In this document: piece after piece, positions 10,481 through 58,900 of the stretch
How positions within the stretch are numbered: position 1 is the stretch's first letter
Layout: every line of letters begins with the position of its first letter
Assembly: GCA_012295275.1 (NCBI GenBank)
Contig: CM022672.1
Coordinates: 12,028,001-12,092,000, forward strand
Origin: Chrysomallon squamiferum
Taxonomy: Eukaryota > Animalia > Mollusca
Direction: 5' to 3'
DNA length: 64,000 nucleotides
The notes under the pieces: generated by a model
Database searches by the model: none
The model's input: the letters and a program-made list of their open reading frames with translations, nothing else
What the model was told of the DNA's origin: nothing
Translations under genes and position numbers: made by a program

Positions 10481-10738
10481 TTTACAACACATCACCATAA
10501 AATATGTGACATTTTTTTTTTGTGTGTCACAATTTGGGAATTTGTGGCTACCTTTCTGTTTTCATTTTATTTTTATCTTTTATTTTTCTGCGACGATTCG
10601 TTCAACATTGCACTTAATTCCTTAAGTTGACGTGTCATGGGAAACTAAAACAAATGTCAAGGCCACAATTCTTTTAGAGAACTGTCAAAAACGAACCGTA
10701 GAATATCTTCATGCCATTTAGTACATATTATAAGTCAG

Positions 10739-13700
10739 ATGTTTAAGATGTGGCTTAAATTATGTCTTTTGTTGATTTGCATGATATTTCTTTTTATTTT
10801 GGCAAGAATTGTGGAAGCAGTAAGCTGGTATGAAGCTGGGTTTTTATCTCGCAGGTTGCTCGATCCTATGTCTCTCTCCGTCTTAAAACTGAAAGCTTTG
10901 TTGGAACAGAGGGGAGTCAGTTATGAAGAGATTGTACTTGAGAAAAAAGACCTCACTGAATTGGTGGAATCTTCAGGTACATTAATAATCTTTTTTCTTT
11001 CATTCTTTTCTTTTTTTTTCAAATTAGATTCCTGATACATACATTTTTTTTTACCTTTGTATTTTTTCAGTTCTGTATTTTACCAATAATCTTTACATCA
11101 AGTGACCATAATGAATAATTAAAAAAAAAAAAAAATGTAATTTCTTTATACAAATGTATGTATATATGAATAGATACCTTCAGTCCATAATTTAAAGAAA
11201 AGTACTGATGAAGTATGTTGCACACAATAAGTGTAATAAAAAAGAAAATGCATTTGTTTTGATTATACGATAATCACATTTGCTTAGGATTATGTGAAAA
11301 TATTAACTGAAAACTGATTGAGTGATTGAGTGACATGAAGCATTTATAATTTTACTATATCATTTATTTTATAAATTACATATTGTTAAGATAATATCAG
11401 AATATTAGTTGAAAACAGATTAATAGTAAAGAAAAAAACTACTTTTAAAGTAAAGTATTTGCTGAATTTAAAAAAAAAAAAATTGTTTTTAAAAAGTACT
11501 CCATCACTTCAATTACAACCACATTAGCTTAAGGTTACATCCAAATATTAACTGAAACTGACATGTTTAATTTTAAAAAGAATTTAAAAAATAAATATAT
11601 TCAAAATAAAAAAAAATCTCCTCAAAAACCATGTTATGGCCTAAGATTATATCATAATATCAACAGAAAACTGATTATAAGATAAAAGCAATTCATAAAG
11701 GACTTGTTTAATTAAAAAAAAAATTAAATAACCCATTGTTTTTTAAAAAGCTTTTTTTTTTTTCTTTTTTTTTTCTTCCTTGAAGGCCCTGTCACAGAAG
11801 GTGATATTGAACAAGCCACTGTTGAAGAAGAATCTGCGACGGTGACAAATTTCTCATCAGGTACACATTTCTTTGAACAAGTGGAGGATGCCAAGGACAG
11901 CGTGTGGTTGATTCAGATTGTAACACAGCAGCGGAGACCTCGACTGCTCAGTGATGTATCATGGTCAAATATTCAGAAAAAGGTTTCCAGATTTGGAGTA
12001 CGAGCTGGCATTTTGGACTGTTCTTTGGACATCAGGTGTGAAATTTTGCTTCTTTTGAGATACCCAGGTTTCAAGTAAATTGTAAAGTTTTGCTTATGTT
12101 GCTCTTCGGATATCAAGTTTAAAATTTGGATAAAATTATAATCAAAATAAATTGTATATGGATTTTTTTTATGTATTAAGTTTGAAATAAAATGTGAATT
12201 TTTACTCAGATGTTTTAGATATCAAGTTTGAAATAAATTATTTATATTTACACACTTTGTTTTAAGATATGTGTCAAATGAAATGCTGAGAATATATCTC
12301 TTGTAACAAAGTAATATGAAATGTCATTACTTTTACACACATTGTACGATATTGCTAATAACAAAGTCCTTACATAGTTCTCATCCCAGGAATGTTCATT
12401 CCAAAAACAGTTTAAAAACATTCTTTTCTTGCAGAGTTTCAAATCTAAGATAGTAATTTGTATATATGTTCTTGTGTTTTCAGGTACTGTAACTCCAGAG
12501 GTTGGTATACACCCCAACTCATGTTAGCTCTACCAGAGGGTTTTGAAACCAAAGCCAATGTGAAGATACACACTTACCCAGGACCTACAAAGGAAGCTGT
12601 TATTTACAACTGGATAAGAGAAAAACTTGATGGGAAAGTCCACAGAATTAATAATCAAAAAGTATTCAAGGAACAGTGGTTAACTTTTACAAATCCTCAA
12701 ACAAATCCAGAAATCCGAGCTGTATTTTTGACTAATCACTCTTTCGTACCAATGTTTTTTTCTGCTTTGAGTGTAAAATTTCCTGGCCGAGTAAAATTTG
12801 GGACCATAGATACAAGCTCTTCAAAAGGAATGCAGATTTTAAAAATTCTTCAAAAAGACAAAGATAAATTTCAGTTAAATAACATAAAAGTTCCATTGTA
12901 TATGATAATTACATCTGAGAGTATTACATTTTATGGTGTAAGATCAGGTGAAATATTTTCATTTTCTACAATGGAAAAATATTTCAAATCATTATATCCA
13001 TGTTTAAATGATATTTTTATTTTCAGTTTTTTGATTGGAAATATTATGTCTTGCTTTGAAATATGTTTAGTCCAAGGTTCTGCTCCAAAAAGATTTAAAC
13101 AATTTGTTTGGTGTTTAATCAAATATAACATAGCGGTAATAATGCTTTGTCTTCCTTTGGTTGCCATTTTTCAGTTACCTTATCTTGATAAAATACCTTT
13201 AATTGGTCTCAAATTGATTAGAATGTTTTCTTTAACAAGTCTCGGAAGCATGATAAGAAATGATCTTTTTTTTTACACTAAACACTCGACTCTTTTAGCA
13301 ACCATGGTCTCTGTCTACATGGTTCTGATTGGCATTGTTGAATATAAAAGAAAAGACAGAGAAGAGCCTGAAGAAACAGATGATAATTTCTGGGATTTCA
13401 CTCAGATGAGGACCCTTGAACATTTGCTGTCACCTTACACCATTTTAAACATAGGTCACCCATACAGATTTCAGTCTGATCTTGAAATGGCAATGAGGCC
13501 TGTCATCTCAGAGAACTACATCAAACAGCTACCAACTTGGCAGTATTCCATGAAATCCAAAATCAGCCAGGATGGCCAGAAAGATGTTCAGACCAACTCG
13601 CACTGTTGTGAAGATGATGCCAATTCACAAAGTATGATGCCGTCAGTAACACATCCCACTACTGGTAATAAAAATGACCACACAACGCATGAAAAATCTG

Positions 13701-13996
13701 GCCTCCCTGAGAAACGCAATCCGAATGATGATAAAGACAAGTGCATGAAACAGAGTAGCAGGTGTGTTGAGAACATGGTTGCCCACTTTCCTACTGGTTA
13801 TCTCCCTTCTCCTCAGTGTGTTATTTGTCTTGATGACTATGTACAAGGGGTAATGTTGTGTGGATTGCCTTGTGGTCACCATTTTCATGAAAAATGCATT
13901 CTTATTTGGCTTAAACTGGACAATCACTTCTGTCCGGTTTGTCGTAGATATGCATTTAACGGCAGTTCCTCCAGTGTTCATATTCATTCTGAATAA
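10739..13996 (+). CDS. RNF103: E3 ubiquitin-protein ligase RNF103 (KF-1), about 663-666 aa
   Basis: Exons 10739-10976, 11786-12035 (AAG acceptor) and 12484-13996, phase-consistent. N-terminus MWLKL..LARIVEAVSWYEAG..LDPMSLS..KLKALLEQRG..EKKDL.ELVE.SG and motif PMFFSALSVKFPGRVKFG resemble vertebrate RNF103. TM segments and C-terminal RING-H2 CVICLDDY..LCGLPCGHHFHEKCI..W..HFCPVCR. The conserved start is probably the second ATG at 10748. Confidence 0.95.
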
Positions 13997-18920: not shown

Positions 18921-29332
<10,412 letters not shown>

Positions 29333-34879: not shown

Positions 34880-37800
34880 TTACTCCAATTTCTTGAGTTC
34901 TTCCACACTAGGAAAATACCAGTAAGTTCCCTTGACATTCTGTGAAATTTTCATGATGTCATCACTGTGCCCATCAGCTCCGGCACCAACCATTCTCTTC
35001 AACATGTACTCAAAGTTCTTTGGTGACTCAGCATAGCCAATGAAGAAAAGACCATGTTCCCCAGCAATGGTTCCAAATGGCATTGACTGACGTACGATTT
35101 GAAAAGGCTTTTCTGCTTCGAATTTGTTCCCTGAAAAACAGAAGATAAACATCTATTAAGAGAAAATAATTTTTCATCAAATTAAAATAATTAAATTTTA
35201 TGGGTTATATTTACTTTGTTGTTGTTATTATAATTCCTTATATAAAGTAAATATTGGCTACTGTCACATAAAAGGTAGGAAAATAATTAATCTTGAAAAT
35301 AAATTTTAAAAATATTAAAAATTATTTCAAGAATTAAACATTTACCAAGAAATGAATTATTAGAAGAAATAGATTTTGTCCAATCTTATTAAAACAGATG
35401 AATTTTGAAACTTAATATCATACCTGTATTGTCTAAAGTAATTTGATTAAAATCTTTAAGCAGTTATAATGATGATGATGATGATGATAACAATAGCTAC
35501 TACCCTGAATAATTAAGATAATTATTCTTTAGGTACTTCTCAAGGTGATGAGGTATTAAAATTAATTATTTCACCTGATGTCATTCTGGCTACGTGTGAT
35601 GTGATACTTTTACGTTTCAGTTCAGTGCTATCGTCCTTTGAGCGACCAATAAATCCTTCCAAATTTTTATCTAAAAATATTTGTTAGAAGTCATTTGAAT
35701 TACTCTTTGTATATACTGCTAAGCATCAACAGCAATTTTTAATTCAAGCAAATATGAAAAACAAAATGAAACAAAATGCCTATACTGCTTCAGAAAAAGT
35801 ATGTACCCTTCATAAATGTACTGAAATTAATTATTAAAAAAAAAATAATAATTTTCTTTAATTTTTTTTTAATATGCACCCCAAAGATACAAGTCCTAAG
35901 ATATTAAAGAAACAAATGAAGTCCTAAGTCCTAAAATTAGACCTCATTGCTAATGTCTGTCATTTGTACAACATCAAATTATATTATATATATATATATT
36001 ATTAAATTGTCATAATTAACAAATGATTAATAGTAATTTACCTTTCTCTGAATCAATATAATCAAGCTTATGAAGCCATTTCTGAGTAATCTGAGAAAAA
36101 AAAAGAAAAAAAAGTAAAATTATTATATAAAATACTATAGAAATTCTAAAAATGTATTCTTTCTAAACTTTAACTGATTCTCTTTAAAAATATTTAGTCA
36201 GAACATGTAAATGTATTCTATTTTAAGGCAGATGACTGATCATTTATATAAAATAATAATTTTACTTAGAAAGCTTAAAACTTAAATACAATTATTATTC
36301 TTAATTATATTAATAACTTGAATATAATATTATCATCTCTGCAAAATTAGGAAAAATTATATATCTATAATCTGAAGAACTGGATCAAATACCCCACACA
36401 CAAAAATAATATGTACATCTCTGAAAACTGCATAAGCAATATATTGTCATATTACTTATTTTTATCTGAATAATAGGGATATATTATTTATTATTATAAA
36501 ATTAATATTTTGGGTTTTTTCTGGAACAGTTTTTTTTTGTATATATTAGAGTAATTTAAAAGAAAAACACTACTTACCACGTAACTACCTCCAGTTTCTT
36601 TTTCAACTGCTATCTCTTTTCGACTGTCTTCATCAGCAGCATTTTCAGTTCCTGAAATTATACAAAGAAGAGTGGCATGATATAAAATCAAAATCAAATA
36701 TTATTAAAATATTCATTAGTTATGAAATAACTATTCAAAAACTGTAAATAATAAATTAATAATAACAAGAAGAACCTGTACAACAGTAATAATAATTAAA
36801 AACAAAAATAAAGAAAAATAATGAAAATAAAGAAAAAATAAAATTATAATAATAAAATAAACAAAAAGTAAAATAATGAAAATAATGAAACAAACAATGA
36901 TATTAATAAATAAAGAAGAAAAAACCAACCAAACCTTTTTGGAATAATATAACTTATCACAATTTATTTTTTGTATGTTATTTATTAATTTTTTCATATA
37001 CATTATATTATGCTGTTTTATTTTATTTTATTTAAAAAAGCTTAAAATTTAATTCTTATACATATATAATGTATAATTAATTATAAGTATTTATAAAAAA
37101 AATTTATATAATATTTATACATTTTTTTTAATTTAAAATTGTTTAAAATTTGTCCTTATATATAATTTATATTACTTTTTTTTTAAATTTAAAGTTGATA
37201 TAATTTACTTCATATATGTTAATTATTTTATGATTTTTTTTTTATATTTTAATATACTTTAAATATATATTAATAAAAATAATTTTTATTTAAAAATGTT
37301 TAAAATTTACAAAATCCCATTGTAGTAAAGATAAATAATAACAACAACAAAAATTGTATGAAATTGTACTATTCCGATAATAACAATAGAATTTTTATTT
37401 ATTTATATTTTTATATTTTTGATGGTGATATAAACTAGAAGAAAAAAAAAATATGTCTATTGTAAATATTTTTAATCTAAGTATTTTAAAAAATTATTTC
37501 TGATACCATCAATAAATCCAGACAGATCTCTTCCATTTCTGTACACAAAGCTGTAGATGTCTTCAAACTCATCGATGCTGTCGTAGGGCATGTTTTTCAG
37601 AAACACCTGAGTCAACTCAAACAGTTTGCTCATTTCATTGCACTTGGCGTGGATGAAAATATCACCTCCTGAAAATAATGTTAATATTTAATAAAATAAT
37701 GTTAATATTCATTAATAAAATATTTGTAAAATACTGCAGAGGAAGCAAATTATAAAATTGATAAAAAAAAAAAAAAAAAAAAAAAAACCATTAATATATA

Positions 37801-40214
37801 AATAATATTTTTAAAAAACAAAAAAAACATTAATAAATAAATTATAAAAAATTATTAAAAAAAGAAAAGAAAAAAAAAGACAAATTATATACAGAAAAAT
37901 AAACAAGTTATAAATTATTATTATTATTATTTTTTTTTAAATTAACAATTTTATAATGTACTTTTTTGTTGTTGTTGTTGTTGTTGATGTTTTTATTAAA
38001 ACTTTATCATACAGAATAAACCAGCACTCAACTAAAATACATGAATCTACCAATGCTAAATATTAATCTAACATGTTTAAAACTGTAACACATTATAATA
38101 CAAATGTGTATATAAAAAATACAACATAGTAACAGTTTCTTTGAATAAAGAATATTTTTATCTCACCTGAACTTGGCATATCTCCCAGAGGTCCTTTACG
38201 ATAAGGATAGGTAAAATTTTCTTTTGTCTCACCTGCTACCTGGAAAATTATTTAAAACAAAATATTTGGAATTTTTCCTTTTTATTAAATTTATTTACTT
38301 ATTTATTATTTTTTTGTCGTGTTTCTTTTGCGCGATTTTTTTGTTTTGTTTTAGTTATTTATTAGTTTCTTCATTTTAAGTATTATTTTTCTTTATTTAT
38401 TTTAAACTAACAAGTTACTGTTAAAGTGGTTTTCTCTTCCATAATAATTATTTCTGCAGCTATATGTGTTTAACAGTTTTTGGTGACATTTATTTTATTA
38501 TATAAAAATCTATTATTATTATTATTAGCATCATCAGCTTATGTATTCAAAAAAGTTTTATTTAAGGGATGATTTCTGCTCATTTCTTTAAAATTTCAAT
38601 CATTTAAATTTTAAATTCTTTTAGCTATGATCATTACTTATAATTTTATTACCTGGTTATAAAAATTTGGTCCAAATCCAATTCCAGCCAAAATTTCATC
38701 ATCTTCATCTCTCATTTTTGGGTCAACGATTTCATCGACAAACTTCTGAAGTTTTGCTGCAGTTCGCGAAACTTCACGTACTTTGGCTGTAGGCTTCAGG
38801 TGAATCCAGAGGTAAAGTGCATGATCCTTACCTTCAGAATACACCTGTGTTGTCATGGTAACAAATAATGAAAAGAGATTTTTTGTTTTTAAATTATAAT
38901 TAGTGGATTAAGTTTTATAAATTCAAGTTATACTGGTTTATTTTATTTGGAAAAAGTTCTTTTGCAGTAAAGGAATTAATTATCCATTAAGAATTTTAAA
39001 TATGTTAAATTAAAATTATGGTTTTTTTATAAATACGATTAAAAATATTAGAAATTAAAAAAACAATAAATTATTAAATTAGGTAAAGAAAACAAAAATA
39101 ATATAAAATCAAATATAAAATGAAATAAATAAATTAATGAACAATAAACTGCCTGTTCAATTATAAAAATATGTAATTCATAAATTCAAAATTTAAAAAA
39201 AAAATTAAAATTTTTTAAATAAAAGTACAAATATGTTTAGAAGTTTATTTACTAAAACTGGAAATATTCAGAAATTTTAAAAGAATAATATTCAACCTGA
39301 AAAATTTAAAACATAAAAGATTGGGATCTGCATAGAAATGTACAGGCTAAAAGACAGTAATGGTGATATTTTATTGCTTTTTAACAGTCTATTCCTACTT
39401 TACAATAAAAACATCTTGCTTAATTCTGAACATCCTCTAACCTTGACACGCTGTGCATGTCCAGCCATGCAGAAATAATACCTTTACTGCTAGGAAGTCA
39501 CTGAGTACTGCAGTTACAAACAGCCTGTGTATCTAGATGACTGGGCAGGTACAACTAGGTAAATTTCAGGTACGAAATAAATTATAGCTTTAAATGAACC
39601 ACTAAACGGCATGTGGTAAAATATGTTCAATGAAAACTCAGAACTAGGCCAAAACTATTTTCCCTTTCTTTTTATTATTATTATATATATATATTTTTTT
39701 TTTTTTTCTCAAAGTAAGAAAAGATGTGGTATATTTACTCCTGTTTACAATATAACACATCTTTGACAAAAAAAACTGAGGATTCAATATAATTCCCTTT
39801 CTTATTATCATTATTTTTTTTTTTCCTCAAAGTAAGAAAAGATGTGGTATATTTACTCCTGTTTACAATATAACACATCTATGTAAAAAAAACTGAGGAT
39901 TACAACATAATTCATTCTTTAATTAATAAAAGCTCTTAAAAACTAAATACAGAGCAATGTGACATAATTCTCATTACCGACGGCTGAGCTTTCGGAGTTT
40001 CTGCTGCATACAAAGGTTCTGGTTGTAAACTTTGGATGACGTCAGACAGATTATTCCTGTGGTAGACTTGGTAAGCCAGACACCCTGCAGCACCAGCAGT
40101 GGTTACACCCAACAACAGAGGTCGTAAAATATGTTTTGTTCCAAAAGATCTGCTGCTGAATGATCTTGAACTTGCTGCAGTTGTTAAATCATAAATATGT
40201 ATGTGATTGAACTG

Positions 40215-40299
<85 letters not shown>

Positions 40300-40753
40300 A
40301 CAAGCTGGTAATTCTTATCAAATATAACCTCATCACCAATGGCAAACATTTAGCAGAACTGCACCCTCCCAGTTTGTTTCTGTTGCTTACATGACTTGAT
40401 GTTTTTATTTTTATTTATACAAAAATTAACTTAATATCCCTAAACGTTACCATCATGAAATTTATTCCGACATTTATTATACCATTTTTCTTAAATAATG
40501 TCATTTAAAAATATTATAGTAATAATTTTAATGCATTTAAATTGCTTATCATTTGTTAATATTTACATAATTTAGTTCGTAGTCAAGTTCGTCGTGTTAA
40601 ATTTTGTTGTTGTTTTTTTGTTTTTTTTACAAAACTGTAACTGACAGTGCAATATCAGCCTGTAATATCGTGTTATATTAATCATTAAACATACCTGTTT
40701 TTGAAGAGCGAATGAAATGTCTGAAAAGTGTGCAAACTTCGTAACGATGCCAT
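34880..40753 (-). CDS. Dye-decolorizing peroxidase (DyP family, YfeX-like) with N-terminal targeting leader, about 382 aa
   Basis: Exons 40753-40695, about 40170-39978 (acceptor uncertain), 38844-38653, 38239-38167, 37668-37507, 36651-36578, 36090-36042, 35670-35575 and 35130-34880. Motifs: GIGFG, MPSSGGDIFIH, RDLSGFIDGTEN (GXXDG catalytic Asp), GGSYVITQKWLH, IGRSK, SHVAR (proximal His), IVRQSMPFG (distal Arg), EHGLFFIGY, GTYWYFPS. Confidence 0.93.
39706..39901 (+). repeat. ~118-bp tandem duplication in DyP intron 2
   Basis: ctcaaagtaagaaaagatgtggtatatttactcctgtttacaatataacacatct..actgaggatt is present twice. Confidence 0.9.
40218..40296 (+). repeat. (GA)n microsatellite, read as (TC)n on the DyP sense strand
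   Basis: About 39 GA units, roughly 45 bp upstream of the DyP exon 2 acceptor. Confidence 0.95.
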
Positions 40754-46289: not shown

Positions 46290-49200
46290 TTAAGCCCTTT
46301 TTTCCCGTTTGAGAAATATTTTTTCCAGACTCATCATGGGGGCCTCAAACATAAGAGTCACAATGAAAGCCACACCGTAACTTGCCATCAGGAAAGACAG
46401 GAACATGAAAGTCTGAAAAATAACAAATAATCATAGAAAATCAGAGAAAATAAACACAATTTTACTAATACCTTGTGTGAATATGGAGCAAGAATTCATA
46501 GCTAATGCTCAGACAATGTAAATATAATAAGCTAATGTTCAGACAATGAAAATGTAATATGCTAATGTTCAAACAATGAAAATATAATAAGAACTCTCAG
46601 CTAATATTTAAAAAATAATAATAATAAAAAATAAAATAATTTCTATTCTATTCTAACTCTTTTTACGTGCCCACGTCCAATTCAAGGTTCAGGCACGCCT
46701 ATCACGGATCCGATCTCTGGGATTGCCAGGGATGTGTTCCGGGACAGGAGAGGGGAAGGGAAAAGGGGGAAAAGGAATGGGAAGGGAAGAAATAAAATAA
46801 AATTAACACAGCAAGAACCCACAGCTTATATTTACAAAGTACCCTCACCATAGCAACATCATCTACACAGGACACTTGTCACAACACACTACTCTTAAAA
46901 CAACAATCTACAAAACAGTCTTTTCACATCAACATCATCAACCAAGCACACAATATCATTTACAAAGAACCTTTACAAGGACAACATCGTCCACATTGCA
47001 CACTTACCACAGAAATGTCTGTTAAGTGAACAGGCTGCTCCAGGGTGTAGAAGTAGTAGATCATGACCATCGGGTGGACGAGGTAAGCGCAGTAGGTGAG
47101 TCGACTCAGTGGAATAATACCTTTCCATGACAACAGTGTGTTCACAAAGCCTGTGATTATAATTAGAAAAATAGGTGATGTATTTCTTGCAGGTATTTGT
47201 CACAGACAAGAATATCTCGAGTACGTCTCATATGTCACATGTGTTCAGCATATAAAACAAGAATATCTCATGTATTTCATGTGTCGTATGTATTTACCAC
47301 ACAAACGAGAATATCTCATGTATTTCATGTGTCGTATGTGTTTACCACACAAACAAAAATATCTCATGTATTTCATGTGTCGTATGTATTTACCACACAA
47401 ACAAGAATATCTCATGTATTTCATATGTCGTATGTATTTACCACACAAACAAGAATATCTCATGTATTTCATATGTCGTATGTGTTTACCACACAAACAA
47501 GAACATCTTGTGTATATGGACTATATCTTGTCATATATTTATCATATAAAAAATATCTCATGTATTTCTCTTATGCCATATGTCATGTCATTTGTATTTA
47601 TCATATATAATAATATTTCATGTATATACCATATATAAGAATATCTGATGTATTTCTTATGTCATATATTTACCAATACAAGAATATCTCACATATTTAT
47701 TTCTTTTATGTCAGTTGTATTTATCATATATAAGAATACATACAAACATGTATCAACATACTAAAAATAATATATTTTTTTTTATGGAAGAATGAGACAA
47801 TATAAATCATATGAATGCTGAAAGAATAAAAACAGATACAAGAATATTTCTAATAAGTCATCCGTGTTTTCAAAGAATGCATAATTATATAGATGTAAAC
47901 AATAATACATTTAAGAATAAGCCAGTACAACTACATTTCAATATATGTAACTCTGAAATACTAAAAACAGATGTGTAAATATTTCTTATTCGTACTTACA
48001 TACAAAAACATATACAGCAGTAACAACAACAACAACAACAACAACAACAGTACAGTTACCTCCATGTCCTGTGGCACAAGCAAACACCACCCAGCAGATA
48101 CACCCTCCCCACACAGATCGGCTGACTGAATTGTACAAGGCAGCAACGTCGTCTGACATGGGGTGGCCATTGTTGTAATCGTACAGACCATAGACAACAG
48201 ACAGAGCACAAGCAACAGACATGGCCCAGCCAAAGACCACAGTTTTCTGTGGAATACAAAATATATCACACTTTATCAGTCAGTAAAACAAAATAAACCT
48301 TCATTTGTGAGATTTTTTTTGTTGTCACAACATGCCACTGTTTTGTTTAAACATCTATTAATAATTATTGTATCCAATTACTATGTCTAAACTAGGACTG
48401 TCTAATAATACAATTAAAATTTAAAGACATTTGTATCAGTATATTTTGATTGTGAATATTACACGTGAAACAACATTAACAAATGTAATTAAATTTTATG
48501 GAAATAAAATATTATTTGCATGCATAATTCTGATGCCATGAGAAAAACTGACAATCCAGAAAACAATATTAACCAAACTGTCAGTAGGTTTTGTTCTTAG
48601 GATTTTGTTTCAAATATGTTACGCAATGTATTATAGGTATACCTCATATATTGTTTTATAGCTTTTTAGTATGAAGTTTTAAACTTGATAAACAATGTAT
48701 TAAAATTATTACACTGAACTAATATATACATATAAATACATACATATTAATAGAATTATGTTTCAAATATATTATGCAAAGTACACAGACATACACATAC
48801 AGACACACAGAAAGAGAAAAAAAATCTTATTCACTGAATACACTTAGAAGGTTTTATTTACCTTGCTCATACGAACTTTACACTCAGTCTTGTACAGCAG
48901 GTAACCAGTCATTATGCCTATAACATAGGGTCCCATTCTACACCAAGGTACCATGTATATATCTTGAAAGCTTTTACCTCTAAAAAATAAAGAAAAAAAA
49001 AAAAATAATAATAATAATGATGATAGTGATGATGATGGTGATGTTGATGATAATGGTGAACATGAAGATAATAAAGAAGATAAAAATGATGATAAAAATA
49101 CCTCTTAAATGACAGAATATAAACATGAATAAAAACAGTTATGAAAGAAATCAGCTGTTGTCCATTACAGTACTTTTGTTTGTGTATAAACATAATAATT

Positions 49201-49910
49201 ATTTACATACATTACATATAAACACTGATATGTTACTGTTGTCTAAGTTACTCGAGTTAAACTTCATTATAATTGTAAAAATATATTACTGTTGTAGATA
49301 ATGTGAAAAAATCACAATTGATGAAAATGTTGGCAAAACAATGCAGTTGATGAAATTGTGAAAAAATCCACACTACGGTAGTAAAACATGATACAGTTGA
49401 TGAAAATGTGAAATGATCTACACTAATCTACATTACAGTGGTAAAAAGAAACCCATGCTACTGTCACAGAAAATCAGAGACAAATCTACATGACAAACTG
49501 GCTCACGGTTGTGGGTTCTGAGTTGCGTTCATGTTCTGCGCCCCTCCAGTAAGTCCAACACTGAGGTGTTCCACCTTTGTTATCAGAGCAGTTGTGATCA
49601 GGGTTGTGATGAGAAATAACAGGGACATCATTACTCCTAGCAGTCTGGAGCTGAGAAACAAAGAGAAATATATATATATGTATATATTTTAAAAACAAGA
49701 GCAAAAGGTAATAATTCACTTCTGAAGCTAAAAATGTTATGTTATACACCTTAATGTTGAATGTGATACTAAATATTTATTTATTTATTTATTTGTGTGT
49801 GTGTATGTAGGTATGCATGTATGTATGTATGTATGCATGGTTTTTGCGTGTGTGTGTGTGTGAGAGAGAGTGTTGCATGTGTATGGTATGTGTGTTATAT
49901 ATATATATAT

Positions 49911-49980
<70 letters not shown>

Positions 49981-52900
49981 AAGGAGAATTAAAAACTTCT
50001 CAAGCCAAATGGTCATGTTTCTATCAGAATTTCTGAAGAATTATTAAAATAAAATCTTTGCAGAAGACAAAGTAAATACTTACTAAAAAAAAGGTATCAG
50101 AATAAGGGGACTGAGAATGTAAAACTGCATGTCATTTGCTAGATACCAGCTCCAAGCCATACACTGCAAGATGATGATAATGATGATGATGATAATAATC
50201 ATAATAACAATATTGATTATAATAATTAAATAATTGATAATGATGATGATGATGATAAAAAATACTAATTATAATAATTATAAAAATGATGATGATGATG
50301 ATGATAATAAAATAATAATAATAATAATAATAAATTTAAATAATATTATTAACAACAACAACAACAAAATATAAATAATAATAATATCAGAGCATCCCAT
50401 GAATAGGCAGACACCAATATATGCCATTCCTGAACAAAACAAAAAACAAAAAGTAACCAAAAAAAGTTAAATAAAAAAATTAAAAATGTATATACAATAA
50501 ATTTTAATTAAAATAATGAAAAATTTAATTAGTAACTAAATAAATTACCCAAGAGAGCTGAAACCTAATAATCATTAATATTAAAACGTAGAAACGCAAG
50601 CACTCGTTTATTAATTTTGATGTACTTACCATTTTGTCTTTCTTGACGATGTTGTTGATGTACAAAAGGTTGGTCCACCACGTGTCTTCGCATTCATTCT
50701 GTTCGTACCCAGTCTGCTTCCACAGCGGCCCTGATCCGATGTACGGCAACAGTGGGACGTACACCATCAACAGCAGCATGTATGGCGGTGTCAGTCTGAA
50801 ATATGTCATCAAATACAGAACAGTGATTATTTAAGTGTAATGATTATTGAAATATTTAGCAATGATTAGTGAAACATTTAACAAATAATTAGTGAAATAT
50901 TTAACAAATAATTAGTGAAATATTTAACAAATAATTAGTGAAATATTTAACAAATAATTAGTGAAATATTTAACAAATAATTAGTGAAATATGTAGCAAT
51001 GATTAGTGAAATATTTATCAATGATTAGTAAATTATTTAACAAATGATTAGTGAAATATTTAACAATGATTAGTGAAATATATAGTGATGTTTACTGAAA
51101 TATATAACAGTAATATATATATACTTACTGAAATATTAAATTATGATAACCGAAAGTAATTAGCACTATGTAATTCTGTAATTACCTCCAGAATCTGTGG
51201 AAATAGAAAAGAGCCCAGTTCATCTTCAGACCTTTCCCAAGTCTTTTCATTTCCTTCAGTGTCAGGTAGGCTACCAAGAGTCCACTGTGAACACAAGAAA
51301 AATGTCTCTAAAGTTATGTTGCACAAAAACCATGAAGTAGACTTAAATAAAACTCTTTACTTCAATTTGTGAACGACAAGTTTCACTAATTATTGTTGAA
51401 TTCTAGCAAATGAAATGAATTAAAATAAAACTAAAAATGAATTAAAAGGAAACTGAACTAAAATGGACTGATTTGAACTGAACTGATTTGAACTAAACTG
51501 AATAAAAAATAAAAAATGAACTGAAACAGATCGATTTCGTGTTATCTTGAACTCAAAGTGAAAAACTGAATTGGGTCAGTTTAACAGAATAAAATCAAAG
51601 AGAAGTGAAATGGAGATTCACCTTAGTGTGAAGAAAGTGTCAACTGAAAATGTTGCGTTGACAATGCACTGGAACGAAAAACGTTTTACATCGTCCAACA
51701 GAACCATTAAATTATCTGTCAGAAGAAAAGTAAATCTTTTAACAGAAGTTAAACAGACATTATTTAATTTTTAAAAATAAATAAATAATAATTAACAAAT
51801 TAAATTTTTTTTTAAATAAATAAATAAATAATAATAACAATAATAATAAAAACAATAAGCTATATGAAAATACAAAACAAGACAAGAAAAAAGCAAAAAA
51901 AAAATTAAAATTTAAAATTAAAAAAAAATTAAGAAATAATAAATAAGATTTGCAAAAAATAGAGAAACAAACAAGAAACAAAAACTGTTTGTATTATTAA
52001 TATTATTATTTTTGTTTTTAAGTTAATAAAACGAAGAAATAATACATTTACACTGGGCATAGCACTTTGTATCTCATTCCCTGGAATCATTCTACTGATG
52101 ATAAAACTTTTAATTTATTACTTCATACTTCTTTCTAACAGACTTGAGTAACAGAGAAAGTATAGAAAAAAAATCACCAAAAAATATTAAGACTTTTTAA
52201 TAATAAATTATCTTGTTCTAAAACGTTACTTCTGTTTACTAATGAACTGACCAACAACTGCCAGGCCAAACACGTATGAATGTCCGAGGATGATCCAGGT
52301 CATGCTGATGAAGCGGATCCCATGGACAGCGGTCAGTGTGCCCTGTGGCTGTGTGGTGTCCAGCAGCTTCTTGACGTTCGTGTACAGAGAAAACGACAGG
52401 AAAATCCTCATAAGCACAGCTGAAACGAGAAACTATTTCAGAAACAAATGCTAAAAAGTTATATTCATTGAAAATGCCATATCCGAAATTCTCAAATTCT
52501 TAAAAAGTTCTGGAATCCAAAACGTTTTCCAAGCAGTAGAAATAGTCATGTATCTTACCGTTTTCAGACTGTTTTGAATACACAAACTTCATTTTGTGAC
52601 ACAAAATTATTAAAAACATTATACATAAAAAAAAGAAAAGAATTCACAATATTTGTAGAAGTTGTTATGAAATATAAATGGAATTCACATTTAGACTTAG
52701 ATGCTATTCTCAGGCTGTCACAGTACAGTGGGAGTGTGTACATGTGTGTTTTATGTATCCAACTGTTCATGTGAAAAGAGAAAATCAGATAAAGTACATC
52801 TGAAAGGAAGAGAGAGAAGGAATTTTAATAGCAGTGAGAGAATGACAGAAAAAAAAATGAGAGAAAGACAGAGTGGTAGAGAGACAAAAATACAAATGAG

Positions 52901-55448
52901 ATAATGATAGAGTGGTATAGAGACAAAAAGACAAATGATAGAAAGACAGACAGAGAAAGATAACTCCAGTATGTGAATATTACACAATAAAATAATAAAT
53001 GATTTCTTCAAACTTATTAATTTTAATTAAAACAATACATTGTGTTTTCATTTCTTACAAGGCAATGCTGACTTTTTCTTTTCTCCAATAAGTGGAGTGC
53101 ATTCGTCATCGCCAGCCAGAGCCTTGTTGTTCAGGCGTGGGATGATTTCTGCGTCGTTGGCCATGTGACTGGGCATTCCATCTGTCCCCAGAGACAGGCG
53201 TGCTTTCATAGGCAGCTGAACAAAGACAACGTCTATGAAAGTGCCTATGAGAATGACAGCCACAAAGACCATTACAACAATGCTGAAAAATAAATTCAAT
53301 ATTCAAACTGCGTAAGTGTTGATACTCTTAGTAGATTTAAATTTTCGTTTTAAATTCACTTTATGAAAGGTTAAATAGTAAACTTTAATGTGTTAACAAT
53401 CTGTTAGATCTCAATTTTAATTTAATTAACATACAGATAGATAGATAGACAAATAGACAGACAAGACAAGACAAACAGACAGACAGACACTTACAGAACT
53501 GCAACTGCCTTTCCACTCATTGTGCGTCCATCCTCAGAACACTCACTTGACCCAATTTTGAGACCTTTCGTTATATTAGTTCCAGTAATGTTCTGTACAT
53601 CATCCAGAACTTTAAATAAATAAAAAAAAAAAAAATAAATAAATAAATAAATAGTTAAATAAATAAATAAACAAAGAAATAAATAATCATATAGTTAAAG
53701 AATCTAGTAAAAAAAACCATATACATAAACAATAAAATAAAATAAACCAAAAATAAAAATATAACAAAAAATATAACAAGAATAAAATACATTAAGCCAA
53801 AAATGTAATAAAAATAAGTAAGTAAACATGCAAACAATATAATGTTTTAAACAGCAAATTTAAAATACACAAATTAAAATACAAATAAATAAATGAATGA
53901 AAAATAAAATAACCATTTAAAAAGATTTAAACACTAAATAAATAAACGTGTTTATAACTAATATGTAATAATATGTCTATCATTAAGACTGTACCAAAAT
54001 GGCAGAAAAGATCTCTAAACTTTTGTTTATTTTTGAATGACAATATTTTAATATTCAGTGCTAAATGACAGTATTCTAATGCTGTGAATTTTCTTACGAC
54101 TGTTGAGAATATTTGTAGCATCACTGCTTGAACATGAATCTGGTAAACAAACACCCATCTGAATTCCAATGAACAGAAAAGGGCTGGCCTATGAGGCAAA
54201 AAAATACAGTATATGTATAATAATAATAATAAACAAAAGTACAACCTTTCTTAATAAAATATATTATTCAGTGAGTAAAATATCAAACATTATCCTATCC
54301 ATAATATATTAGTGAAATATAAAACATTATTTTATCAGTGATATAACATACATTATCCTGTCTATCAAATATCTAACATTATCCTATCCATAATATATCA
54401 AGCATTATCCTATGACTGATCTATCAAACATTATCCTATCAGTGAAATATCAAACTCTATCCTATGAGGCACATTAAATATAATCCAACAATTGGGATAT
54501 CAAAAACCAAACTTTCTTATCAAATATTATTCCTTACCTGTGAACCTCCTGATAAATTTATCTTTGCAAGGCAGTACTTTCCTTTGAAAGTATCATCAGG
54601 TTTAGAATGTTTAGACAACTGACTGGTGTTGTAGTATATTTCTGCCTTCACCCCTCTGCACTCTTTGTAAGATCCCAACCAGATCATATTTCCCTGTAAT
54701 ATGCCACTTCCTGGCTTTCCTGTAGCATCTATAACTGAAATATCAAATAACATCCTATCAGTTTTACTGAAATATCAAATAAAATCCTAAAGTTTTACTG
54801 AAATATCAAATAACATCCTATTAGTTTTACTGAAATAACATCCTATTAGTTATACTGAAATAACATCCTATTAGTTATACTGAAATATCAAATAACATCC
54901 TATCAGTTTTACTGAAATATCAAATAACATCCTAATAGTTTTACTGAAATATCAAATAACATCCTGTTATGTTTTACTTGAACATCAAATAAAATACTAA
55001 TTTTACTGAAATATCAAACAATATCCAGTTAGTTTTATTGGAATATCAATGTCATGTTAGTTTTACAGGATATAAAATATTTTATTAGTTTTAGTGAAAT
55101 ATCAAACAATATCCTTTTATCATTATATGGAGGGGGGCTGGGAAAACATCAAAGAATGGAATATAAAACATAATTTTATCAACAAAACATCAATTAATAC
55201 CCTATTGATAATATAATTATGGCTGGAGATACTAAACAGTTAAGGCTCTCATATTTACGTTTATCAAACAGTATCTATATCAGTCTGTGTATGTATGTGT
55301 GAGTTTATATATATATATGCATGTATGTATGCATGGGTGTATATATATATATGTATGTATGTATCTATGTATGTATTTTTGTGTATATATATGTATCTAT
55401 GTGTGTATGAATGTATGTATGTATGTACGTATGTATGTATGTACGTAC

Positions 55449-55480
<32 letters not shown>

Positions 55481-55990
55481 ATGTGTATGTATGTACGTAT
55501 GTATGTACATATGTACGTACGTACGTATGTATGTATGTATGTATGTATGTATATGTGTATGTATGTATGTATATATATATATATATATATCAGTAATAGC
55601 TTTACACTTACTTTGTTCAACCCACGGTGTTTTGGTATTCATAATAAACTGAGCAATCATATTTCCCGTTTGGTTAAAACATTTGTCTGTAACATTCGCC
55701 TTTGCGAACAAACGGTCAAACAGCTGTCTTTGCGAAAACGAATCTGTATCTGCAACGTCCCTGATCTGTGCTGTCCTGGCAAAGTAGTTCCAGCTGAGAA
55801 CATCTGTCAGTTCCATCGCATCGCTGGCTACTTTCTCAGCGTCCTGCTGCAGCTGTCTGCTGCTGTGTATGAGGGTGTGAGCGTTCTGCAGCAGCGTCAG
55901 GTACAAGCTTTGTTCTGGTCGCTGGCTCTGGGTGAAGACATCGCTGACAGACAGCAAGAAGAAACACAGAACAACAGACACGACGAACAT
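46290..55990 (-). CDS. nrf-6: Nose resistant to fluoxetine-6 (NRF-6)/O-acyltransferase-like protein (NRF domain plus acyltransferase-3 multi-TM domain), 775 aa
   Basis: Exons 55990-55612, 54734-54538, 54188-54098, 53609-53495, 53282-53059, 52419-52252, 51715-51622, 51284-51186, 50795-50630, 50163-50084, 49650-49507, 48979-48862, 48246-48060, 47150-47008 and 46412-46290, phase-consistent, total 2328 nt. Signal peptide, NRF motif DATGKPGSGILQGN..WLGSY.EC, GVCLPDSCS, HGIRFISMTWIILGH, SVDTFF.LSGLL, HRFWRLTP.Y, WWTNLLYINN, WSWYLANDMQFY, PLSRLTYCAYLVHP, FEAP. Confidence 0.95.
46501..46590 (+). repeat. 30-bp tandem repeat, 3 copies
   Basis: gctaatg(c/t)tca(g/a)acaatg(t/a)aaat(a/g)taata at 46501, 46531 and 46561. 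Confidence 0.85.
46642..46790 (-). mobile_element. Probable 5'-truncated SINE/LINE 3' end in the last NRF-6 intron
   Basis: GC/CpG-rich island reading ..ggcgtgcctgaaccttgaattggacgtgggcacgtaaaaagagtt followed by an (agaat)n tail on the minus strand, as expected of a retroposon 3' terminus. Confidence 0.55.
47200..47740 (+). repeat. 48-bp minisatellite (about 5.5 good copies plus degenerate flanks)
   Basis: Unit aacaagaatatctcatgtatttcatgtgtcgtatgtatttaccacaca. It explains the 16-aa-periodic ORFs in the track. Confidence 0.95.
50840..51100 (+). repeat. 23-bp minisatellite in an NRF-6 intron
   Basis: Unit attagtgaaatatttaacaaata, about 10 copies. Confidence 0.9.
54734..55110 (+). repeat. 25-32-bp minisatellite abutting the NRF-6 coding exon 2 acceptor
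   Basis: Unit actgaaatatcaaataacatcctatcagtttt at 54734, 54766, 54797, 54829, 54854, 54879, 54911, 54943 and 55005. Confidence 0.9.
55288..55590 (+). repeat. Compound (TATG)n/(TA)n microsatellite
   Basis: Directly visible. Source of the MYVC/IHTY spurious ORFs. Confidence 0.95.
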
Positions 55991-58900
55991 GGTTTGATTT
56001 TCAGAATCAGTTGCAAACTTCCATAAGCTGATTATAAACTGTTTGCTTTTTTTGTTGTTTTTTTATGATGATGATGAACTGTGAATGAGAGGAAAAAAGA
56101 AAAGAAAGAAAATTTATAATAATATTTTTTTTTTTTTTTCAGTTGTTTAAAGCTAGACCAATAGTTATGTGGTTTTAAAAATATTTTAGATGTTGAACAT
56201 AACTCTATACTAACATTTATGTTGTAGATGTTAATGACTACATCAGCTATCACAATGCACTGAGCTATAAGAGAATATCTGATGAACTCTTTCCAGCACC
56301 TGGATATCATCAGCTTCTGTTATAGTCCAGATTTCTGTAATTACATGGTTATAGCCACTTTGGTGTTGAAAAGGATAAAATGTTTATATTCTTCAGTGTT
56401 CAGTGGCTCACATAATAAAAATATCTCAAAAATAAAAAAACATTTCAGTACAGTAATTGCATGCCCTTTGATATACAGCTTAAATAACAGTACAGACAAG
56501 CACACACAAACATTTGTAAAACATGCTCACAAAACTGGGTTGTTGACAGTGACTGTCAGCTTTTTAAGCTCATCACAATAGGTCATTTTAAAACTAATTA
56601 GCTACACTTTTACTCACAAACACGTTTGTACAAACTTACACACACACACAAACACATACACAAAATAAATTTACAATTTCAATGAATAGTAAATGAGAAT
56701 AGTAAAAAAAAAAAAAAAAAAAAAAATTAAATATTCATGTTACATTTAAACTAATAATAATGAATATTTATATAACTAGATAAATTTATTTTACTTATTA
56801 CTCATCCTATTTTGAGTTTTGTCTTTGCAGCCAAGACACTGAATTAACTCACAGCTATATCAAACATAAATATGATAATATCCTTCTTAGCTGATCCATA
56901 CTGATACCTCTGTCTTTGTCATTTTAGTAAACAAATGTATATCAAATATATACAACAAAAAAAAAAATAATAAAAGAGGTCCAGCAATATTTTCCATTCA
57001 TCAATTTCACATATATAATAATAATGTGCATACAGAAGGATTAAAAAAAAAAAAAAATAAAAAACTTTCTTCATATTTAAAAAATGTGATTTCAATGTCT
57101 AACTGCATAATTATTTTTTTTCATTCAAAACACATTAATATTATTACTGTCATGTTTCATTTATTTTATTATATCAAATTTTAATAGCTTATTTATGATA
57201 ATAATAAATATCACTAAAGAAAAACAACCTCTTCACATGAACAGTAATAAAAATGAAAGAAGTGAATGTATATATTAATGTATGTATGTCAACATGTGAA
57301 TATATTATTTGTATGTATACTAATAATAAACACAAGAAAGCCTAGAAAACAATAAATGTTAAAAAAGTATATTTACATAAACTTTATGTTTATTACCTTG
57401 ATAAATAATGCCACTTTAACAAATTCTCATATTTTTCCCCCCATCATCAAAATAATATCCAAAAACGTGTCTTAACAAACATCAAAAATATTTACATGTT
57501 TTCATGTTATGCATTAATGTGTATTTGTTATCAGGAATATGCACATATATTACTGCCTTTTGCCCTGTGTAGTTCATTAAAAGCAACTAGATGAAAAAAT
57601 CTGTACAGCAAAAATGTTTTCAAACCGTGACAAAATCAGTGACATGTTTTTAATGTTGCTGAATATGAATAAACAGTATTTTGCCTGAATCACTTTTTGA
57701 AATTCAGTGACTTCTTTATATTCAGTGAACCATTCAGTAATGTTGTTTGTAGATGTTAAGTATCACTAGTGAGAAATACTTGGGTTCAGTGTTATACATG
57801 TACAAGGTTCAGTTTGCAAGATAAATACGCAGTAACAACTTTATACAAATTGCATAGCATATACAATCATACATATAATTATACAGTTGATGCTTTATGC
57901 AAAAAAATAAATATATGTATGTAAATAAATAAAAATAAAAAGAATTGTTTTAAAGATGTGAACTGTACAGTAATGTACACAAACATAAAAGGTAATTAGG
58001 TGGGGGTTTTTTTGTTGCTGTAAGTTACAAATTCTCTATACTGATTTGAACTACCTCTTTATGTATGTATATCACAGCTAACAGAATAATCAAGTGTATA
58101 AAAATATAATTAATAAATTATATATATATATAAAATAAAAACATAATAAATAATATATATGAATCTATATTTAAAAAATAATAATAAAAAATAAAAATAA
58201 ATAGAAAATTAATCAAAATCACACAGTTATTGTTGAAAAATTTCTTCTTTTTTTTTTTAAATCATGTATGTAATAATAAGAAAAACAAAACCTTCTGACG
58301 TCACTTCATGACTGCTTTTATCAATCTTCAGCAAGAGATTTGTTTTTATATGCACCTTCCCATGGACAGAAAAAATATAAAATACAACCTTTGATTCAAA
58401 TAATTTTATTCAAAACAAATTTTTTATTTAGTTATATGGTGTTAAAAATATATTTAAAGAATGACAGTGATGAAATCTGAGGACACTATCTATTGATCAG
58501 GCACATAAACTAGACTGAATTAATAGTAGAATATGCATGATTTTCGAATTATACAAACATGAAGTATCTCACATGCAGTATTTCAATATTTATTTTATAT
58601 GTGGTACATATGTTATGTATATCAAACACCTGCTAGGCCAAATTCAAATGTTTGATATTAATATTCTGCAAATGTTGATTATGTAACAACTGAACATTGT
58701 TTATCTCCAAAACCAAGTAAGATCTGTTTTATTTTTTTCATAATTTTTTTCAATGTATTTAGCTAAATAATGACATAGTTTTGTCAACCATGTCCATGAT
58801 TTCTCTGTACATGACCACAAAATATTCATCAGACCACGAATTGCTTTATTCCATTGCTTTGATAACATCAAAAACAAACACTTATGTATGACTAAGAAGG

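Follow-up and report, generated by a model that had tools for sequence, protein, structure and literature searches.

A class B/P dye-decolorizing peroxidase with a putatively mitochondrial bipartite leader in the snail Chrysomallon squamiferum

Introduction

The closest described relatives of the gene considered here are the bacterial class B/P dye-decolorizing peroxidases (DyPs) YfeX (5gt2), KpDyP (6fks) and VcDyP (5de0), proteins of about 300 residues that carry no N-terminal extension, which is how class B is described in PMC8230527. In animals, EmDyp of the tapeworm Echinococcus multilocularis was the subject of a 2022 preprint (bioRxiv 10.1101/2022.11.07.515413) that claims to characterise the function of a DyP from an animal for the first time and that reports heme binding, peroxidase activity on diaminobenzidine (DAB) and luminol, and catalase activity. 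The present analysis concerns a stretch of 64,000 nucleotides from the genome of the snail Chrysomallon squamiferum (contig CM022672.1, positions 12,028,001 to 12,092,000; hereafter the window), whose minus strand carries, from 40753 to 34880, a DyP gene with a leader of about 80 residues ahead of the enzyme. The gene product is a class B/P (YfeX/KpDyP-like) DyP with a distal Asp, a distal Arg and a proximal His. Judging from the build of its leader, the protein is probably mitochondrial, whichever compartment it may occupy. The more specific reading proposed here, to which a probability of roughly 0.58 is given, is that the enzyme would be imported by means of the bipartite leader, arrested at the inner membrane facing the intermembrane space, and would reduce H2O2 there.

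Gene structure and enzyme core

The gene consists of nine exons separated by eight introns of 371-1133 bases, all of them bounded by GT and AG; the two junctions of exon 2 are supported by RNA, and the remaining six introns rest on GT-AG borders and on colinearity with the ortholog P0001. The coding part of exon 1 (40695..40753; all exons lie on the minus strand) contains the start codon and the first presequence-like part of the leader, with a one-base frame offset upstream of about 40728. Exon 2 (39978..40174), whose acceptor at 40174 and donor at 39978 are given by contigs from four of four RNA runs and by translation, encodes the remainder of the presequence, a Gly/Ala-rich helix, a linker, the motif LYA↓AE (the arrow marks the predicted cut) and the first residues of the enzyme. 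The N-terminal DyP domain begins in exon 3 (38653..38844), which is joined to exon 2 in RNA and encodes the animal-specific acidic loop RDEDDE from 38712. Exons 4 (38167..38239), 6 (36578..36651) and 7 (36042..36090) have GT-AG borders and are colinear with P0001, the first of them also having an open frame. The catalytic residues are found in the other exons: exon 5 (37507..37668) ends in the GxxDG motif (GFIDG), whose distal Asp codon (37510-37508) aligns through the ortholog to Asp143 of KpDyP; exon 8 (35575..35670) contains SHVAR with the proximal His codon at 35596-35594; and exon 9 (34880..35130), which closes with a TAA stop, contains IVRQS with the distal Arg codon at 35092-35090 and matches Pfam PF20628 (Dyp_perox_C) with an E value of 3e-15. 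An initial annotation of the window had described a YfeX-like DyP spread over nine exons with GFIDG, SHVAR and IVRQS, preceded by a hydrophobic stretch and LYAAE, and this description is borne out by the GT-AG exons, the located motifs and the Pfam match, the two leader elements both being found in exon 2. A search with exon 9 retrieved 84 proteins among 103 candidates, the top one being a protein of Gigantopelta aegis that RefSeq already names 'dye-decolorizing peroxidase YfeX-like'; 286 of the 363 residues encoded by exons 2-9 are identical to this ortholog. Two repeats were also seen within the gene: a GA microsatellite of 80 bases lies just 5′ of the exon-2 acceptor (40218-40298), and in intron 2, near 39700-39900, a block of about 100 bases is duplicated.

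Family models PF04261 and PF20628 were both above their cut-offs, and TIGR01413 scored 155.7 bits against a cut-off of 100.5. The best sequence matches in the PDB were KpDyP and YfeX, with the distal Asp and Arg aligning to D143 and R232 of KpDyP. A structure model, made for the ortholog P0001 from a 31-row alignment, reached a pTM of 0.77, with low confidence over residues 1-44 and a helix at residues 37-55 (pLDDT about 45-55). Comparison of this model with Foldseek gave the V. cholerae DyP 5de0 as the best match (E 9e-31, TM 0.91 by target), and the matches 5de0, 7yzt, 2hag, 6fks and 5gt2, with TM scores of 0.87-0.92 by target, share the two-domain ferredoxin-like alpha/beta fold. A fold or sequence of the class I peroxidase-catalase type, to which cytochrome c peroxidase (Ccp1) belongs, was looked for, and every listed fold and family match was a DyP. 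Among the 95 leader-bearing homologs described below, the distal Asp is kept in 94 and the proximal His and distal Arg in all 95. Two features set the animal enzymes apart from the bacterial ones, namely two typical Trp residues that are rare in bacteria and an acidic loop before the second strand, whose net charge has a median of -4 in animals, -2 among protists and 0 across 80 bacterial rows. Being conserved in animals, this loop hints faintly at a partner of basic character and, indirectly, at oxidation of ferrocytochrome c; the net charge of the whole domain gave no useful separation of animals from bacteria. Class B proteins are described as leaderless and cytoplasmic (PMC8230527), whereas here a leader of about 80 residues is spliced on and conserved, which makes the enzyme a variant of class B/P whose catalytic core is still within the class.

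A conserved bipartite leader

Five sequencing runs contain the stretch, four of which are RNA, all from one study. The DyP transcript is present in all four, and when the segment 39935-40215 was compared, the RNA contigs of each run stopped matching exactly at the borders of exon 2, with loose ends that correspond to exon 3 at one border and to exon 1 at the opposite one. Because the contigs join exon 1 to exon 2 and exon 2 to exon 3 in four of four runs, the leader exons belong to the enzyme, just as the initial annotation had drawn them. The contigs extend 90-159 letters past the junction of exons 1 and 2, and a 5′ untranslated region therefore continues upstream of the coding part of exon 1.

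Conservation of the leader was followed in 132 proteins from homolog searches, 114 of which cover the domain. A Met at least 45 residues ahead of the domain is present in 95 of the 114, in nine animal phyla, which answers in the affirmative the question, raised in the initial annotation, of whether the leader is kept across invertebrates; the other 19 are mostly partial models, with a few truly leaderless or signal-peptide paralogs. Named carriers include gastropods, bivalves, Paralvinella, Lingula, bryozoans, Macrostomum, trematodes, cestodes, Priapulus and hemichordates, and the models of Trichoplax, Lottia, Helobdella and Tubulanus start at the domain. The same layout is found in proteins of Echinamoeba, Naegleria, Willaertia and Mucochytrium, so that it is kept in amoebozoan, heterolobosean and stramenopile relatives and in most of the 15 protist-type rows of the tree presented below. 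A search of the Atlas with the 80-residue leader itself as query gave no usable match.

The segment ahead of the helix contains 15% Arg, 16% Ser and 0.7% Asp plus Glu in the 95 leaders, and 81 of them have neither Asp nor Glu. A segment with no acidic residue and at least three Arg is found in 72 of the 95 leaders versus nine of 5120 windows of 35 residues taken from their own enzyme domains. The motif R-x-[FLYI]-[SAT] occurs in 58 of the 95, where shuffles give 23.6+/-4.0; at the domain border, V-x-[AS]-[AES] is present in 53, where shuffles give 3.1+/-1.7. Neither count was reached in any of 500 shuffles. By composition and by motif counts against these controls, the segment has the basic, hydroxyl-rich and acid-free character of a presequence with an R-2/R-3-type site. 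It is followed by a weakly hydrophobic Gly/Ala-rich helix, the predicted stop-transfer segment, which in the window lies at 40071..40121 (minus strand) and is the hydrophobicity peak of the protein (Kyte-Doolittle 1.5-1.8). Across the 95 leaders the helix starts at a median residue 35, with a median Kyte-Doolittle value of 1.44 and 41% Gly plus Ala; the N-termini of two proteins of the window presumed to be of the endoplasmic reticulum (ER) type, the only two controls, give 3.0 and 2.45. It is by a presequence followed by a stop-transfer helix that proteins such as cytochrome c1 and Ccp1 reach the intermembrane space, and the layout of the leader is that of such bipartite sorting signals, unlike that of secretory signal peptides. 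The composition and order of its parts thus support the view that the leader would fit a mitochondrial presequence with a stop-transfer helix better than a secretory signal.

Two groups of paralogs differ from the main form. In P0116, P0134, P0135, P0125 and P0158, all within the animal clade, short hydrophobic starts resembling signal peptides replace the bipartite leader, which suggests repeated retargeting to secretion. A second group, made up of P0078 (Aplysia), P0124 (Bulinus), P0126 (Lymnaea), P0079, P0112, P0117, P0122, P0123, P0133 and P0136, has presequence-like leaders, a GxxDG motif that has degenerated, and 15-29 cysteines, whereas two proteins of the main clade used for comparison have 0-3; this clade may resemble the cysteine-rich structural proteins of sperm mitochondria.

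The reading frame of exon 1

The exon-2 acceptor used in four of four RNA runs is 40174, which puts the ATG at 40753 out of frame by a single base, the coding sequence being 1153 nt long, one above a multiple of three. An upstream in-frame ATG was looked for in exon 1, and that exon has none. The acceptors 40170, 40164, 40155, 40152 and 40149, which would be in frame, were dropped as the main form, given that no contig uses them, although contigs lose rare variants. Read in the frame of the enzyme, the 3′ half of exon 1 gives HFIRSSKT, compared with HVIRSSKT in the G. aegis ortholog, and the local score is 61 versus 27-29 for the frame of the initial annotation; the opening MASLRS agrees with the N-terminus of many homologs. 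Since acceptor 40174 leaves the ATG off-frame, part of the presequence first proposed, LHTFQTFHSLFKN, is most likely an off-frame reading. That exact presequence needs acceptor 40170, 40164 or one further downstream and does not stand as written, whereas its general character is strengthened: the corrected segment has, in the 30 residues before the helix, five Arg, two Lys, eight Ser and no Asp or Glu, and is acid-free, richer in Arg and more presequence-like. An assembly slip is the simplest cause of the offset. An allelic indel is also possible, because in three of the four runs the last exon-1 letter shown is not that of the window: run X1 equals the window over the 30 letters shown, and X2-X4 differ at the 30th (40727). 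All four RNA runs also differ from the window at 40033 (T>C).

Origin of the animal enzyme

Among 1.84 billion representatives, a profile search found 2104 matches, of which the best 150 were listed, and a scan of bacterial genomes found at least 565 relatives among 600 stretches, of which the best 80 were kept, at 30-39% identity. From 350 sequences, 304 covered the domain, 166 remained after thinning and 87 were chosen for a careful tree, built without class A, C and D DyPs and without DyPA. The 25 animal rows (18 named, the window, and six placed by position) formed one clade (100/96), which joined 15 protist-type rows (100/99) apart from all 32 bacterial rows (21 named). Four of the 15 were identified, as Naegleria gruberi, Willaertia magna, Mucochytrium quahogii and a cluster holding Echinamoeba exundans; of the others, three came from marine protist transcriptomes and eight were unnamed. 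A tree forcing the animals to group with bacteria was rejected by the approximately unbiased (AU) test (p 0.006; LG+G4, midpoint root), a grouping that was chosen after earlier trees. Because animals and leader-bearing protists form one clade that excludes bacteria, an animal-specific transfer from bacteria is unsupported, and with it the horizontal acquisition by animals that the initial annotation had considered. It is likely that animals inherited the gene from a unicellular eukaryote and then lost it in many lineages, rather than taking it from bacteria; a single ancient entry into eukaryotes and a eukaryote-to-eukaryote transfer into stem animals are both possible. A transfer into Schistosoma from lower eukaryotes was proposed in PMC4420034, and it is disfavoured because the DyP is spread widely across animals.

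A second profile search with the protist rows (49 matches of 7997 candidates) found further leader-bearing proteins; no choanoflagellate, sponge or cnidarian was named among its matches, most of which are nameless. The row P0199 was not used, its taxon number resolving to a basidiomycete, a misfit with a marine protist transcriptome. P0153, P0170 and related stramenopile-type rows (seven of the 15 protist rows) are leader-bearing DyPs without the distal Asp, and are possibly heme-binding pseudo-enzymes. Eukaryotic-looking DyPs were also found nested among gammaproteobacterial YfeX (P0211, from a Blastocystis cluster, P0196, P0182, P0206, P0209 and P0215), a position that identifies them as apparent separate, younger transfers; the start of P0211 is short and presequence-like.

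Predicted import route and alternative readings

The data show the gene structure, the splicing of exons 1-2-3, the catalytic residues, the fold, the conservation of the leader and the position in the tree; import, topology, cleavage and electron donor are predictions. The Arg/Ser-rich presequence would drive import through TOM/TIM23 and would be a substrate of the matrix peptidase, with an R-x-(F/L)-(S/A/T) cleavage site; transfer would be stopped at the inner membrane by the weak Gly/Ala helix, and a second cut at V/L-x-A↓A would release a soluble enzyme of about 307 residues (35 kDa, pI 5.4), unless the enzyme stays anchored. Heme would be bound through the proximal His and H2O2 split by the distal Asp/Arg pair; reduced cytochrome c is the first guess for the electron donor, followed by small reductants or H2O2 itself in a catalase-like reaction. 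An ancient eukaryotic peroxide scavenger of the intermembrane space is likely the best reading of these features.

Several observations weigh against it. The helix is marginal, with a crude insertion sum of about +4 kcal/mol, and might fail to arrest import, and the hydrophobic moment of the presequence, computed on the off-frame model, is modest. The leader counts are mollusc-heavy and not independent. The distal Asp is kept in only eight of the 15 protist rows, and the window copy is frameshifted relative to the RNA junction, so that it may be a null allele in this individual. The leader-bearing DyP of N. gruberi, XP_002676075, is absent from the supplement of PMC8134430, which lists 946 putative mitochondrial and 78 peroxisomal proteins. 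Finally, the N-terminal helix of EmDyp was taken as a secretion signal, albeit without a localisation test (bioRxiv 10.1101/2022.11.07.515413).

If the Gly/Ala helix were too weak to stop transfer, the protein would be fully imported and would act in the matrix beside peroxiredoxin 3. The median Kyte-Doolittle value of the helix, a crude insertion energy that is positive in nearly all 95 leaders and the low model confidence in the helix all speak for this, but different phyla, and protists too, retain the helix, its G-Y end and a linker of 25-30 residues closed by V-x-A↓A, features that a plain matrix presequence would not be expected to need, and a matrix enzyme is judged unlikely. The motif V-x-A↓A also fits signal peptidase I, and would be in place in a secreted or type II signal-anchored protein of the secretory pathway, the role proposed for the tapeworm ortholog being protection from oxidants made by the host or by microbes. 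Some paralogs (P0116, P0134, P0125) do have classical signal peptides, and in the preprint the N-terminal helix is predicted to be a signal peptide and expression in host liver is high, but the localisation given there is a prediction only. Moreover, an acid-free Arg/Ser segment with R-3 motifs precedes the helix, which does not begin until about residue 35 (about 20 in flatworms) and is far less hydrophobic than the two ER-type controls, and even the cestode relatives P0128-P0130 have five Arg and no acidic residue ahead of it, all of which makes a secretory fate very unlikely.

The prospect that the enzyme is instead a porphyrinogen oxidase of the intermembrane space, tied to heme or pigment synthesis and not a general peroxide scavenger, appears quite remote. 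The late steps of heme synthesis face that compartment, and the YfeX group contains the nearest relatives of the animal protein, but orthologs are kept in trematodes and cestodes, which depend largely on host heme. In PMC3215433, E. coli YfeX is shown to oxidise protoporphyrinogen in vitro, and yet the paper concludes that YfeX is a typical DyP. The slightest weight is given to the view that the window copy is a frameshifted null allele from which nothing functional is made in this individual. It would account for an ATG out of frame with the RNA-supported junction and for the agreement of run X1, alone of the four, with the window; however, exons 2-9 are intact and keep their identity to the G. 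aegis ortholog, the transcript is found in every RNA run, the exon-1 letters shown end before the point at which the offset must occur, further upstream, and acceptor 40170, though shown by no contig, would restore the frame for the window sequence.

Localisation data and implications

A leaderless eukaryotic DyP ending in SRL (P0161 and the N. gruberi paralog XP_002669769) is on the second sheet of the PMC8134430 supplement, taken as the peroxisomal list, and is a probable peroxisomal DyP. The MitoTOL and Acanthamoeba tables, in which the relevant species codes were absent, gave no informative match. A literature search, with subscription journals outside its scope, found no paper placing a DyP in mitochondria, and term searches for DyP in the main text of PMC7050145, PMC13632651, PMC13777428, PMC10400150 and PMC9220675 gave no mention. 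A 27 kDa spot on a Dreissena 2D gel, described in PMC11036304, mismatches the predicted mature form of 35 kDa and was left unused. The targeting and function of the family had been regarded in the initial annotation as uncharacterised; this is weakened for function, since the tapeworm ortholog has been assayed (bioRxiv 10.1101/2022.11.07.515413).

If the proposed location is right, heme-based peroxide removal would be an unrecognised trait of the mitochondria of most non-model invertebrates, among them bivalves and snails studied for their tolerance of hypoxia and reoxygenation, and the published reading of the flatworm DyP, as secreted and horizontally acquired, would shift to that of a mitochondrial, inherited enzyme. 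The snail DyP family may also account for the old 'cytochrome c peroxidase' activities of parasitic flatworms. Those of Fasciola and Schistosoma are reportedly mitochondrial, and to our knowledge no gene has been assigned to them. The activities themselves are reported in PMC11668550, and they weaken the earlier statement that no use of a heme peroxidase in this compartment is known from animals; a Hymenolepis peroxidase was reported in 1968. Parasitic flatworms are without catalase (PMC9220675) and their mammalian hosts without DyPs (bioRxiv 10.1101/2022.11.07.515413), and therefore an assay with cytochrome c could assign the gene and define a parasite-specific redox enzyme. A broader proposal can be made only tentatively and is itself doubtful: that an ancient eukaryotic DyP clade resides in the intermembrane space of molluscs, annelids, flatworms, hemichordates, priapulids, amoebae, heteroloboseans and stramenopiles, that it constitutes a second cytochrome c peroxidase with no structural relation to the first, and that the Fasciola and Schistosoma activity is due to it. 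If the location is wrong, the gene encodes an ordinary, already annotated invertebrate YfeX-like peroxidase.

Neighbouring genes

The neighbours of the DyP gene are ordinary animal genes. A multi-exon RING-H2 gene on the plus strand (10649-13996) has an N-terminal hydrophobic anchor and a Pfam match to RING only, and presumably resembles RNF103. A V/A-type ATPase subunit gene, probably V-ATPase B, lies at about 21500-29330 on the plus strand, convergent with the DyP gene, and upstream of the latter, on the same minus strand, an NRF-domain gene (nose resistant to fluoxetine 6-like) occupies about 46900-56060, with a short tandem repeat near 47250-47550.

Comparison with known systems

The snail DyP shares with YfeX, KpDyP and VcDyP the fold, the Asp of GxxDG, the proximal His and the distal Arg and Ser, at 30-32% identity in the structure alignment, and differs from them in having introns, the bipartite leader of about 80 residues, the acidic loop (net -4 versus 0 in bacteria) and the animal-typical Trp residues. 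EmDyp is, like it, an animal YfeX-like DyP with an N-terminal helix, and although EmDyp itself is outside the sequence set, its cestode and trematode relatives fall inside the same animal clade; in contrast, the preprint reads EmDyp as having secreted and cytosolic splice forms, and offers no mitochondrial reading. DyPA of Dictyostelium (7o9j) is likewise a eukaryotic class B DyP, but according to PMC8230527 it is intronless, leaderless and, by EYFP fusion, cytoplasmic. Other eukaryotic YfeX-like rows, including that of Blastocystis, nest among gammaproteobacteria, apart from the leader-bearing clade. If the location proposed here holds, yeast Ccp1 would be the working likeness of the snail DyP, a heme peroxidase that a presequence and an Ala-rich helix direct into the intermembrane space. 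Their folds are unrelated, Ccp1 belonging to the class I peroxidase-catalase superfamily according to PMC4420034, and where Ccp1 has a distal His/Arg pair, the snail DyP has Asp/Arg.

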